A stretch of DNA of 64,000 bases. Origin: Escherichia coli (GTDB lineage: Bacteria; Pseudomonadota; Gammaproteobacteria; Enterobacterales; Enterobacteriaceae). Shown piece by piece: positions 6,324 through 8,761 of this stretch (positions within the stretch are counted from its first letter, which is position 1; each line of letters opens with the position of its first letter). The position numbers and the translations under genes are program-made. The stretch lies in assembly GCF_003334305.1 (NCBI RefSeq), contig NZ_QOWS01000004.1; one strand, 5' to 3'. The notes under the pieces are model-generated. The model ran no database searches, was not told the DNA's origin, and worked only from the letters and a program-made list of their open reading frames with translations.

Positions 6324-6354
6324 TCTCCGCGCCTTTCAGCGCGGAGATTTCTTT
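6324..6354 (+). terminator. Hairpin terminator between convergent ghxQ and ygfS
   Basis: TCTCCGCGC-CTTTCA-GCGCGGAGA perfect stem followed by TTTCTTT. Confidence 0.6.
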
Positions 6355-6845
6355 CACAGAGGATTCTCACCGCTGGCAACAATACGCTGCTGGCGGACTC
6401 GCCTGAGTTCTCTTTCAGTAAGCAACTGCAGCGCCTGTGTTGGGCAAGATTCAACGCAGGCAGGCCCCTCTTCCCGCTGTTCACAGAGATCGCATTTCAC
6501 AATTTGTTGTCGGGTATCCCCCGGCAACGACTGAATGGTGATCATTCCAAACGGGCACGCACTGACGCAACTCTGACAGCCAATACAACGGGCAGAATTG
6601 GTCTGCACCACCTGCTCGCCCATCGTCAGCGCCCCCACGGGGCAAGCGCCAACACAAGGGGCGTTTTCACACTGATGGCACATCACCGGCGCACTGATGC
6701 TGTCCAGTCGCTGTACCTTCAGCCGGGGTAAAAAGACATCGGCATTCAACTCCTGTTCTGAAGGGTGAGCGACCACACAGGCTACTTCACAAGTACGGCA
6801 GCCAATACAGTCAGCCGGATTAACGATAATTAACGATTTCATCAC
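6354..6845 (-). CDS. ygfS: Ferredoxin-like protein with four 4Fe-4S cluster motifs
   Basis: 163-aa ORF with four Cys clusters ([43 protein letters not shown]...CVESCP). Its start overlaps the ygfT stop. Confidence 0.85.
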
Positions 6846-8761
6846 GATGCCTTCGTATCAAACAGAGTTAACATATCGCGCGCCGCCTGCCTTCCTGCGG
6901 CCATTGCAGTGACAACCAGATCCGCGCCATGAACTGCATCCCCACCAGCAAAGACTTTTTTCAGATGCGTCTGGGTAGGTAAATACCCGACGTCACCGGT
7001 TTGAATCAGGCCCCATTTATCGAGTTTAATTCCGCTGCCCTGCAACCACGGCATGGCATGCGCCTGGAAACCAAAGGCCATAATCAGAACATCGGCGGGC
7101 AATTCAAACTCTGAACCCGCTACCGGACGAGGACGACGGCGACCATCCGGCCCCGGCTCACCCATGGCGGTACGAATCAGGCCCACCGCAGTTAAACGCC
7201 CATCTTCGTCACAAGCGATATATTGCGGTTGAACATTGAACTGAAACTCGACACCTTCCTCGCACGCATTAACCACCTCTTTGCGCGAGCCCGGCATACT
7301 GACTTCATCACGACGATACGCGCAGGTCACGCTGGCAGCATTGAGGCGAATGGAAGTCCGCAAACAATCCATTGTCGTATCGCCACCGCCCAATACCACG
7401 ACTCGCTTACCTTCCACGTCCGTCAGCGGATACTCTTCAGACTCCGGCAATCCCATGAGCTGGCGGGTATGGGCAGTCAGGAACGGTAGAGCCTGAATGA
7501 CACCGGGTGCATCTTCATGCGGCAGATCTGCTCGCATCATCCCGTAAGTCCCCACGCCGATGAAAACTGCATCATATTCAGAAGTTAAATCGCTAAAGGT
7601 AATATCGCGGCCAATTTCACAGTTAAGATGAAAGTCGATTCCCATTGCGGTGAATATCTCTCGCCGCTGGCTTAATACCGTTTTATCGAGTTTGAAAGGA
7701 GGAATGCCAAAAGTCAGCATACCGCCAATTTCTGGATGGCGATCAAAGACATCAACCTGAACTCCCGCGCGCGCCAGAATATCAGCACACCCTAACCCTG
7801 CTGGCCCAGCGCCAATCACCGCCACTTTTTCGCTACGGGGAACAACTTTGCTGACATCGGGACGCCAGCCCATCGCCAGCGCGGTATCGGTGATGTAGCG
7901 TTCCAGATTACCGATAGAGACTGCGCCAGAGTGATCTTTCAAAGTACATGCGCCTTCACAAAGACGGTCCTGTGGGCATACCCTGCCGCAGATTTCTGGT
8001 AAGGAACTGGTCTGGTGGCAAAGTTCTGCCGCTTCAATAATCTTTCCTTCCTGTACCAGACGGATGTAATCCGGAATAGCGTTATGCAGCGGGCAATGCC
8101 AGTTGCAGTTAGCTTTTTCGGCACAATAAACACAGCGGTCACTCTCATAAGTCGCTTGCAGTGGATCCAGCCCGCAATAGATTTCGCCAAAGTGGGTTTT
8201 CCGTTCACTCGCTGAAATTTTATCTGCGCCTTTACGCGAGTTAACGGGGAGCAACGCTGCACTGCGAGATGGCTGAGCGTCTGATGACGCTTTTCCTGCT
8301 GCCGTTTTGCGCTGGCGAGCCACCTTTATCCACTGTAACCCTTTATCGTCCATCAGTCGTAACGCCTGTGTTGGGCAGACTTCAATACAGGCTTGCGTGC
8401 CGGAACTGCGCTGGTTACAAAGGTCGCATTTCTGCGCAATCGTATCGACCATCTCAACGACGCCAAAGGGGCAAGCGATTGCGCATCTTTTACAGCCAAT
8501 ACATTTTTGCTCGTCCAGTTGTACGCTATCGGACTGGAAAGTCAGAGCATTAACCGGACAAGCCGTAACACAAGGGGCATTGTTGCAGTGATGGCAGGCC
8601 ACCGGATTCGCAGCCTGGCCTTTCCCTACAACGTGGATACGCGGTCGAAAGTCACTGTGACTCAGCGGCCAGTTTTCTTGATTGTGTGCCACCGCACAGG
8701 CAATTTCACAAGCATGACAGCCTATACATTCCGCAGCTTCAGCAGCGATAAACTTATTCAT
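6842..8761 (-). CDS. ygfT: Fe-S flavoprotein oxidoreductase: N-terminal ferredoxin motifs plus GltD-like NAD(P)H/FAD domain
   Basis: ORF 6842..8776; likely start MNKF at 8761 (639 aa). N-terminal CxxCxxCxxxCP motifs; dinucleotide-binding motifs [11 protein letters not shown] and [13 protein letters not shown]. Confidence 0.85.

Follow-up and report, generated by a model that had tools for sequence, protein, structure and literature searches.

Gut bacteria that degrade urate anaerobically influence the urate level of the host, and work is under way to build the pathway into probiotic E. coli against gout and hyperuricaemia (PMC12507026; bioRxiv 10.1101/2022.07.24.501321). In 2025 the reductive urate pathway was reconstructed biochemically, and no step in it was given to YgfT (UacF) or YgfS (PMC12507026). 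In the same work XdhD-YgfM and YgfK each functioned in vitro with NAD(P)H and have flavin entry sites of their own. Urate degradation requires ygfT or aegA, and in addition formate and FdhF, according to Iwadate and Kato (2019) as cited in later articles (bioRxiv 10.1101/2022.07.24.501321; PMC8097209). The pathway needs four electrons, and its least defined part is how these are supplied in vivo and why formate, FdhF and either YgfT or AegA are needed. Biochemical assays of YgfT or YgfS were not found in the published literature that we searched.

The closest described relative is AegA (E. coli b2468), a paralog of YgfT with 54% identity over the full length, the same four-cluster ferredoxin domain and the same GltD-like module. 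The two proteins are described as genetically redundant in formate-dependent urate degradation (bioRxiv 10.1101/2022.07.24.501321; PMC8097209, both for the statements that bear on AegA). There are distinct differences in gene organization and expression. Unlike ygfT, aegA is monocistronic, lies between narQ and nudK and has neither a downstream ferredoxin gene nor purine genes nearby. Urate induces ygfT strongly and aegA only modestly (bioRxiv 10.1101/2022.07.24.501321). Against the AegA equivalog NF009408 YgfT scores 946.2 bits, under the cutoff of 1003, and it lies above the cutoff of the YgfT model; this score and the differing synteny (narQ-aegA-nudK versus uacT-ygfT-ygfS) make YgfT a paralog of AegA and not its ortholog. 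In two-hybrid assays AegA interacted with HydN, YsaA and HycB and not with FdhF (PMC6004506), which suggests a small ferredoxin as the link between FdhF and the large protein.

Parts of YgfT and YgfS are also found in well-described complexes. The GltD-like modules comprise the glutamate synthase small subunit, NfnB, the N-terminal half of DPD and the NADPH modules of Stn and Bfu-NfnABC. HycB, HydN and the HDCR subunits HycB3/HycB4 are four-cluster ferredoxins that join FdhF-type formate dehydrogenases to their partners, and HycB is the FdhF-binding subunit in the structure of formate hydrogenlyase (FHL). A relative from the same gene island is the 2,8-dioxopurine reductase YgfK, which has Fer4_20 and Pyr_redox_2 domains as in YgfT (34% identity over about 430 residues). 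YgfK likewise belongs to the urate regulon and is highly urate-induced (bioRxiv 10.1101/2022.07.24.501321). It differs from YgfT in that it carries an FMN/DHODH-like catalytic part as well and that its substrate has been demonstrated (PMC12507026).

Here, we analyzed the ygfT-ygfS locus in a window of 64,000 nucleotides of E. coli DNA (contig NZ_QOWS01000004.1); the coordinates are collected in Table 1. The locus is the known E. coli operon of an Fe-S flavoprotein, YgfT (UacF), and a small ferredoxin, YgfS. The DNA of this stretch is 100% identical in several strains, where RefSeq labels the genes ygfT and ygfS. Genes, domains and the link to urate have all been published and are reflected in the names that RefSeq uses; the reading of the locus in the original prediction is correct but not new.

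Table 1. Features of the ygfT-ygfS locus (positions in the window)
Feature	Position	Strand	Description
ghxQ	4951-6318	+	guanine/hypoxanthine permease; flanking gene; RefSeq annotation of identical DNA
Hairpin between convergent ghxQ and ygfS	6324-6347	.	GC-rich, 9 pairs, 7 GC; putative bidirectional terminator
ygfS	6354-6842	-	162 aa ferredoxin with four 4Fe-4S motifs; operon gene 2; RefSeq ATG start
ygfS, alternative GTG start	6354-6845	-	163 aa
ygfT stop / ygfS start junction	6840-6845	-	GTGATG(A); window sequence
ygfT (uacF)	6842-8761	-	639 aa Fe-S flavoprotein; operon gene 1; ATG at 8761
YgfT FAD and NAD(P)H-binding domain (residues 312-623)	6893-7828	-	Pfam Pyr_redox_2 (PF07992)
YgfT Fer4_20 region (residues 188-298)	7868-8200	-	two-cluster region of GltD/DPD-type modules; PF14691, E 2.5e-36
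YgfT N-terminal ferredoxin domain (residues ~1-150)	8312-8761	-	HycB/HydN-type; Fer4_11, four 4Fe-4S motifs
Sigma-54-like promoter element	8808-8824	-	TATGCCCGTTTATTGCA; upstream of ygfT; window sequence
CRP-like palindrome	8855-8872	-	TTGAACTCAGTCGCAAAA; upstream of ygfT; conserved across genera (upstream alignment), exact pattern match
uacT	9197-10645	+	urate/H+ symporter; divergent from ygfT; RefSeq annotation

The original prediction had placed the pair between the guanine/hypoxanthine and urate permeases, in agreement with ghxQ and uacT as the flanking genes at RefSeq. It named the genes in the order ygfS, ygfT; the two minus-strand reading frames lie where it put them, but ygfT is the first gene and ygfS the second. 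Its description of YgfS (four 4Fe-4S motifs) is borne out by 16 cysteines and a Fer4_11 match, and that of YgfT (a ferredoxin-like N-terminus fused to a GltD-like flavin domain) by Fer4_11, Fer4_20 and Pyr_redox_2. The domain search and the comparison with the AegA paralog that it had proposed were both carried out: Fe-S and flavin/NAD(P)H-binding motifs are present, and the comparison gave the full-length identity to AegA stated above. Two mechanical open reading frames were discarded. A ygfT start at 8776 (644 aa) was rejected in favor of the ATG at 8761, which, together with its AAGGGA Shine-Dalgarno sequence, is the conserved start in the upstream alignment. The plus-strand frame 6240-6731 (163 aa), antisense to ygfS, was taken as an artefact because ygfS and ghxQ account fully for this stretch.

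YgfT of the window matches the NCBIfam YgfT equivalog NF009451 over residues 1-639 of the 639-position model with 1500.3 bits (cutoff 1154), and model and RefSeq name alike read 'formate-dependent uric acid utilization protein YgfT'. It is 99.5% identical to K-12 YgfT, from which it differs by Q144W, Q201L and R500C. YgfS is identical to the K-12 protein, with two synonymous differences in the gene. The R500C exchange was considered as a possible loss-of-function allele; only YgfT/AegA conserve residue 500, and GltD and NfnB have E or L there.

YgfS carries its 16 cysteines in four CxxCxxCxxxC-type motifs that are invariant across 22 YgfS/HydN/HycB-type sequences. The N-terminal domain of YgfT has the corresponding cysteines (12/15/18/22, 56/59/64/68, 87/90/93/97 and 112/115/125/129), invariant in 14 orthologs; its identity is 46% with YgfS and lower with HydN (38%) and HycB (34%). 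In a Pfam search the YgfT N-domain and YgfS matched Fer4_11 with E values of 9e-13 and 1.2e-11, and YgfS matched related families as well. The closest solved relatives of both are HycB (PDB 7z0s_B, the best PDB match of YgfS with E 8e-32; E 3e-30 for the YgfT N-domain) and HDCR HycB3/4 (7qv7). All 16 cysteine ligands are shared with HycB/HydN at 34-40% identity. YgfS is without the insertion of about 30 residues that HycB has between motifs 3 and 4, and its gene partner is a flavoprotein; unlike for HycB/HydN, no hydrogenase is encoded alongside. Judged by cysteine motifs and Fer4_11, YgfS and the YgfT N-domain are thus classed as HycB/HydN-type four-cluster ferredoxins with predicted cluster binding, and they score 137 and 119 bits against the HydN equivalog NF007658, both below its cutoff of 260. 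Neither a Tat motif nor a hydrophobic segment was found in the YgfS sequence.

The remainder of YgfT is a GltD-like module. Among PDB entries GltD is the nearest (E 2e-107); over residues 176-631 the alignment with GltD and with NfnB (E ~1e-85) is end to end, and the TIGR01318 gltD_gamma_fam model is exceeded with 844 bits (cutoff 483). The Fer4_20 cysteines (210/213/219/223 and 258/262/268/272) do not vary among orthologs. For FAD there is a GAGPAG motif at 317, and for NAD(P)H the motifs GGGDTxMD (458-465) and YRR(D) (482-485); all are invariant in 14 orthologs and align with those of the NADPH-dependent GltD and NfnB. Cluster cysteines, FAD motif and NADPH motifs are common to YgfT and the GltD/NfnB-type modules, whereas the N-terminal four-cluster domain and the separate ferredoxin partner are additions of YgfT. 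A gltB, NfnA or DHODH-type partner is absent from the ygfT neighborhood, and a gltB-like gene is missing both there and in every YgfT-type locus examined. The label 'glutamate synthase small subunit', which some sources use for homologs, was therefore rejected, given the missing gltB partner and the extra ferredoxin domain. The true gltD genes of gammaproteobacteria lie at separate loci and match only YgfT residues 187-636. YgfT consists only of electron-transfer modules, and a catalytic substrate domain is absent.

The homology to NfnB (4ylf_B, 5jca_L, E ~1e-85), a bifurcating subunit, and to the NADPH modules of the bifurcating Stn and Bfu-type NfnABC complexes (8oh5, 9bov) raises the thought that the FAD of YgfT splits or combines electrons between NAD(P)H and a low-potential Fe-S chain. 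Formate- and NADH-derived electrons might for example be confurcated, or low-potential electrons might be made for urate reduction. This possibility was raised for AegA in a review (PMC8097209). We regard it as very unlikely. The top-scoring relative of YgfT is the non-bifurcating GltD, an NfnA-like second flavoprotein or a [2Fe-2S] partner was not found in the operon or among conserved neighbors, and there is no experimental hint in this direction.

Our preferred reading, to which we give an even chance, is that ygfT-ygfS encodes a soluble cytoplasmic electron-transfer module that runs from formate via FdhF, YgfS and YgfT to NAD(P)+ for urate reduction. We infer the order of the three proteins and NAD(P)+ as the acceptor. 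Formate would be oxidised by formate dehydrogenase H (FdhF), and electrons would enter via YgfS as a HycB-like docking subunit, or via the equivalent N-terminal domain of YgfT. They would then travel along the Fe-S chain of YgfT to FAD and on to NAD(P)+, probably NADP+. The NAD(P)H formed would drive XdhD-YgfM (urate to 2,8-dioxopurine) and YgfK (dearomatisation), both encoded next door. The predicted cofactors are four [4Fe-4S] clusters in YgfS and, in YgfT, those of the paralogous four-cluster domain, a pair of additional [4Fe-4S] clusters, FAD and a site for NAD(P)H. The suggestion in the original prediction of an electron-transfer module for anaerobic urate metabolism fits the genetics, as far as these are reported in the citing articles, and the RefSeq/NCBIfam name. 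If FdhF, YgfS and YgfT are the physiological supply of reductant, their co-expression could raise the flux in engineered strains, and FdhF would have a further defined role besides that in formate hydrogenlyase.

The gene context in other genera bears on this route. We surveyed 25 YgfT-type loci, 24 of them complete. In all 25, ygfT adjoins urate-pathway genes (xdh-type or ygfK-ssnA), and a uacT-like permease is its divergent neighbor in most other genera. The fdhF gene lies within 10 kb of ygfT in nine of the 25; Pantoea and Erwinia have a ygfT-ygfS-fdhF operon with fdhF directly downstream. Three further loci show an aegA-like/hydN-like/fdhF arrangement, one of them (Serratia) inside a urate cluster. 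A small ferredoxin is present in all 12 fdhF-linked loci, and fdhF is nearby in none of the eight loci that are without ygfS (Fisher p = 0.0095, uncorrected for phylogeny). These eight, among the 24 complete YgfT-type loci, come from Citrobacter, Atlantibacter, Morganella, Arsenophonus and one Enterobacter, and show that ygfS is not obligatory. The linkage to fdhF in other Enterobacterales adds support to a role of ygfT-ygfS between formate and urate. In E. coli, however, fdhF is unlinked to the operon, which counts against the preferred reading.

YgfT might also work in the opposite direction, as GltD and DPD do. In this case NAD(P)H would be the donor, an acceptor in purine catabolism would receive the electrons via the YgfT clusters and YgfS, and formate and FdhF would be needed indirectly, for regulation or redox balance. 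The homologous module indeed oxidises NADPH in GltS and DPD (PMC8097209), AegA and FdhF did not interact in the two-hybrid assay, and deletion of aegA was without effect on FDH-H activity (PMC6004506). Yet the 12 loci from different genera in which fdhF is linked to, or shares an operon with, ygfT-ygfS or aegA-like/hydN-like pairs argue for a direct connection to FdhF. Moreover, a candidate acceptor enzyme that lacks an NAD(P)H entry site of its own is not conserved beside the operon. We therefore consider an NAD(P)H-oxidising YgfT very unlikely.

The constant company of xdh-type or ygfK-ssnA genes could also mean that electrons from FdhF, YgfS and YgfT pass straight to the Fe-S or flavin centers of XdhD-YgfM and/or YgfK, bypassing NAD(P)H, with the pyridine-nucleotide site only as an alternative entry or exit. 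In line with such a direct transfer, the phenotype is reported as strictly formate-requiring (bioRxiv 10.1101/2022.07.24.501321; PMC8097209, as far as these articles describe it), YgfK and XdhD both have Fe-S domains, and YgfK has Fer4_20 and Pyr_redox_2 in common with YgfT. A precedent is the GltD module of GltS, which sends electrons via clusters to a partner subunit and releases no diffusible product (PMC8097209). On the other side, XdhD-YgfM and YgfK are functional in vitro on NAD(P)H alone through their own flavin entry sites, and in YgfT the motifs of the NAD(P)H site do not vary. YgfT can be replaced by AegA, whose gene lies far from the cluster; with a specific protein-protein dock this would be less easy to explain, and the redundancy is in keeping with a product that diffuses, for example NAD(P)H. 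Direct transfer seems to us possible but doubtful.

Fermenting cells are not short of NADH, and hence a route from formate to NAD(P)H alone is not an obvious reason for a strict need for formate. Purine hydroxylation couples have low redox potentials, which would speak for direct transfer at low potential rather than for NAD(P)H. It is conceivable, at clearly less than an even chance, that FdhF, YgfS and YgfT assemble into a dedicated formate dehydrogenase, a soluble complex of three subunits. Rather than just producing NAD(P)H, this complex would deliver low-potential electrons, direct or confurcated, to the urate reductase XdhD and/or YgfK, in effect a formate:urate oxidoreductase system. 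YgfS would then be the HycB-like dock for FdhF, replaceable by HydN or YsaA where ygfS was lost, and the ygfT-ygfS-fdhF operons of Pantoea and Erwinia and the aegA-like/hydN-like/fdhF operon of Serratia would represent the ancestral, fully linked form.

The two genes meet in the junction GCATCGTGATGAAA. A translational-coupling overlap of 4 nt had been claimed here. The overlap as such is conserved, but its length depends on the start codon: it is 1 nt (TGATG) with the RefSeq ATG and 4 nt (GTGA) only with a GTG start. The GTG at 6845 is less likely, since it is the ATG at 6842 that falls in line with the orthologs, which start M-T-S-F, and that is better spaced from the Shine-Dalgarno sequence. 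Most other ygfS-bearing loci, from other genera, have a canonical ATGA at the homologous junction. Stop and start codons overlap in every ygfS-bearing locus examined, and the overlap is thus conserved rather than due to chance. From these overlapping codons, ygfT-ygfS is predicted to be a translationally coupled operon.

Scans for sigma-70 promoters and terminators returned no more sites than in shuffled sequence. The hairpin downstream of ygfS is probably a bidirectional terminator, judged by consensus match only. Upstream of ygfT, the 17-mer given in Table 1 as a sigma-54-like element is the same as the sigma-54 ChIP site OS32 for ygfT, with a weak motif score of 4.5 (PMC4591121). Its -12 element TTGCAT (8807-8812) is invariant in 26 loci, and TG or CG stands in place of the -24 GG; when the regions upstream of ygfT were scanned for GG-N10-GC, the conserved position gave no match in any genus, and only the degenerate -24 element is present there. 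The operon would be co-regulated with uacT and the urate-pathway genes, with urate acting as inducer via the sigma-54 activator YgeV. For the conserved palindrome further upstream, FNR was considered and fits worse than CRP (about 6 versus 8 of 10 core positions, read from sequence). CRP is therefore the presumed regulator at this site; a near-perfect CRP core is also found upstream of ygfK in K-12, and catabolite control of the ygfT-ygfS operon appears probable.

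The ygfS-ygfT pair belongs to a system that is already known, and the original prediction, an electron-transfer module serving anaerobic purine or urate metabolism, is a correct reading of it that published genetics supports. Anaerobic urate breakdown in E. coli needs formate, formate dehydrogenase H (FdhF) and aegA or ygfT, and ygeV has also been implicated (Iwadate and Kato 2019, as summarised by Liu et al., bioRxiv 10.1101/2022.07.24.501321, and Vanoni, PMC8097209). Urate strongly induces ygfT and ygfK, but aegA just modestly (Liu et al., bioRxiv 10.1101/2022.07.24.501321). 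The reductive urate pathway was reconstituted by Li et al. 2025 (PMC12507026). XdhD-YgfM converts urate to 2,8-dioxopurine using NADH, YgfK together with SsnA carries out ring reduction and opening using NAD(P)H, and HyuA, YgeW, YgeY and YgeX act in later steps. These authors name YgfT 'UacF' and give it no pathway step; YgfS is absent from their text. What remains of interest is the predicted FdhF-YgfS-YgfT chain and its electron acceptor, for which the synteny of fdhF offers a concrete, testable hypothesis.

The window is E. coli chromosome. Several complete genomes carry positions 6000-9300 with 100% identity, and a match to this stretch occurs in 5331 of the 5426 complete E. coli genomes. 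Two dog-associated strains (NZ_CP010134.1 and NZ_CP151038.1, hits H10 and H11) carry an IS911 (IS3-family) element inside the ygfT-ygfS stretch. RefSeq annotation of identical DNA gives the order xdhD (cut by the window edge), xanQ, guaD, ghxQ, ygfS, ygfT, uacT, yqfG, yqfH, idi, lysS, prfB, recJ. Both predicted reading frames are real, but they lie on the minus strand, so that ygfT precedes ygfS. Their junction has the sequence ...AAG GCA TCG TGA TGA AA.... With the RefSeq ATG of ygfS at 6842 the frames share a single base (TGATG), and the 4-nt overlap originally described (GTGA) arises solely with a GTG start at 6845. The overlap itself is a conserved feature, since most of the ygfS-bearing loci examined from other genera have a canonical ATGA junction whose ATG aligns with that of E. 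coli.

Coordinates of features in the window and in comparison loci (L-numbers)
Feature	Position	Strand	Remark
ghxQ	4951-6318	+	RefSeq, identical DNA
GC-rich hairpin (putative terminator)	6324-6347		between convergent ghxQ and ygfS
ygfS	6354-6842	-	162 aa; RefSeq, identical DNA
ygfT	6842-8761	-	639 aa; RefSeq, identical DNA
YgfT R500C codon	7262-7264		ygfT codon 500
TTGCAT	8812-8807	-	about 50 nt 5' of ygfT start codon
Sigma-54-like element (17-mer)	8808-8824	-	conserved upstream alignment
CRP-like palindrome	8872-8855	-	TTGA-N6-TCRCAAAA
CRP-like element, L004	20895-20912		
uacT	9197-10645	+	RefSeq, identical DNA
prfB	13013-14111	-	
Rfam matches	33691-33874, 34523-34673, 34915-35065, 48136-48178		
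fdhF linkage, L007	10001-14602		
fdhF linkage, L024	10001-14587		
fdhF linkage, L032	10001-14804		
fdhF linkage, L005	5781-7928		

Domain and motif searches clearly predict Fe-S and flavin capacity for the pair, contrary to the outcome that would have refuted the original prediction. YgfS matches Fer4_11 and related Pfam families and has four ferredoxin motifs with 16 cysteines, all of them invariant in an alignment of 22 YgfS, HydN-like and HycB sequences. The N-terminus of YgfT is a paralogous four-motif domain (46% identity to YgfS). It is followed by Fer4_20 (residues 188-298, E 2.5e-36), holding eight further conserved cysteines, and by a C-terminal Pyr_redox_2 domain with GAGPAG (FAD) and GGGDTxMD plus YRR (NAD(P)H) motifs. 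The Fer4_20 cysteines and both sets of nucleotide-binding motif residues do not vary among 14 orthologs from different genera, and they align with their counterparts in the structures of NADPH-dependent GltD and NfnB. As judged from these motifs, the pair could accommodate ten [4Fe-4S] clusters and a single FAD. Since neither contains a Tat motif or a hydrophobic segment, both should be cytoplasmic. Comparison with the paralog AegA, proposed at the outset, gives 54% identity over the full length; YgfT scores above the NCBIfam YgfT equivalog cutoff (1500 bits vs 1154) and below that for AegA (946 bits vs 1003).

HydN and HycB are 34-40% identical to YgfS and to the YgfT N-domain. The best solved relatives of both are HycB of formate hydrogenlyase (FHL; 7z0s_B) and the HycB3/HycB4 subunits of hydrogen-dependent CO2 reductase. 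HycB binds FdhF in the FHL structure and holds the relay clusters B1-B4 (PMC9474812). Unlike YgfS, HycB has a long insertion between the third and fourth motifs. Pinske 2018 (PMC6004506) classes YgfS, YgfT and AegA together with HydN, YsaA, HycB and HyfA; two-hybrid assays in that work showed AegA binding HydN, YsaA and HycB, and no AegA-FdhF interaction.

For gene context, YgfT/AegA-type loci were sampled at one genome per species, with three further contexts from exact protein look-up, and annotated by mapping a panel of K-12 proteins plus FdhF onto them. In all 25 YgfT-type loci ygfT adjoins urate-pathway genes (ssnA-ygfK, xdhD-ygfM or an xdhABC-like set), usually with a divergent uacT-like permease. 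Nine of the 25 have an fdhF ortholog no more than 10 kb away. In Pantoea sp. BAV 3049 and Erwinia mallotivora this ortholog comes third in a ygfT-ygfS-fdhF operon with overlapping or nearly overlapping frames, and it stands beside uacT in Klebsiella aerogenes, K. oxytoca, Pluralibacter, Cedecea and several Serratia. The K. aerogenes fdhF retains the in-frame TGA (selenocysteine), and the Pantoea gene has Cys at this position. Three further loci have aegA-like, hydN-like and fdhF genes in a row, that of Serratia microhaemolytica in the middle of a urate cluster; the true narQ-aegA-nudK loci in the set have neither ferredoxin nor fdhF. YgfS follows YgfT directly in 16 YgfT-type loci (one more is truncated) and is absent from eight: Citrobacter sp. 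R56, C. freundii, Atlantibacter, one Enterobacter, two Arsenophonus and two Morganella (L008, L020, L025, L019, L006, L022, L023, L045). Citrobacter and Atlantibacter are among those with the uacT-ygfT-ghxQ-guaD-xanQ-xdhD synteny of E. coli. A small ferredoxin is present in 12/12 fdhF-linked loci, and fdhF is nearby in 0/8 ygfS-less ones (Fisher p = 0.0095, shared ancestry not corrected for).

The model that fits the evidence best, and to which we would give an even chance, is that FdhF would oxidize formate and pass electrons to YgfS as a HycB-like adaptor, from where they would run through the YgfT N-domain and Fer4_20 clusters to FAD and finally reduce NAD(P)+. The homologous modules that have been characterised all serve as NADP(H) ports, the NAD(P)H site of YgfT is invariant, and XdhD-YgfM and YgfK consume NAD(P)H (PMC12507026). 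A diffusible product would also most easily explain that the unlinked AegA can replace YgfT. It is improbable that YgfT works in the NAD(P)H-oxidising direction, with the effect of formate being indirect. Nfn-like bifurcation is just as improbable. The model with NAD(P)+ as acceptor has weak points: fermenting cells are already rich in NADH, and a low-potential route would better suit the low redox potentials of purine hydroxylation couples. Because of these, the main rival is direct Fe-S wiring to XdhD or to YgfK, possible but on balance unlikely. As ygfS has been lost in several lineages, the YgfT N-domain, or the paralogs HydN and YsaA, may be able to stand in for YgfS.

Two elements in the 435-bp ygfT-uacT intergenic region are conserved in 26 loci drawn from many genera. 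In the first, TTGCAT is invariant and preceded by a degenerate -24 element, in E. coli TATGCCCG; the GG dinucleotide is absent here and in every genus examined. Bonocora et al. (PMC4591121) list the same 17-mer for ygfT as OS32, a sigma-54 ChIP site whose motif score is weak. By its sequence the element appears to be a conserved sigma-54-type promoter of non-canonical form, which would agree with regulation by the sigma-54 activator YgeV. The second is a palindrome found upstream of ygfT in many Enterobacterales genera, which we infer to be a candidate CRP site; K-12 has a near-perfect CRP core upstream of its ygfK gene. Such a site would agree with the glucose repression of urate degradation that Li et al. 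(PMC12507026) report along with a Crp site at ygeW.

In this strain YgfS is the same protein as in K-12 (two synonymous changes in the gene). The ygfT gene differs from that of K-12 by 17 synonymous codons and by three amino-acid replacements, namely Q144W (a two-base change), Q201L and R500C. Position 500 is Arg in 13/14 YgfT orthologs and Glu or Leu in GltD and NfnB, and an exact 31-mer spanning the Cys500 codon is present in 197 of 5426 complete E. coli genomes. Nothing in the substitutions suggests loss of YgfT function. At other places in the window, Rfam matches at gathering threshold are to 6S RNA (ssrS), two SIB antitoxin RNAs and the ES036 sRNA. The prfB gene, with its programmed +1 frameshift, is annotated in identical DNA as a CDS joined from two pieces and appears as a shortened 293-aa frame in the mechanical ORF list.
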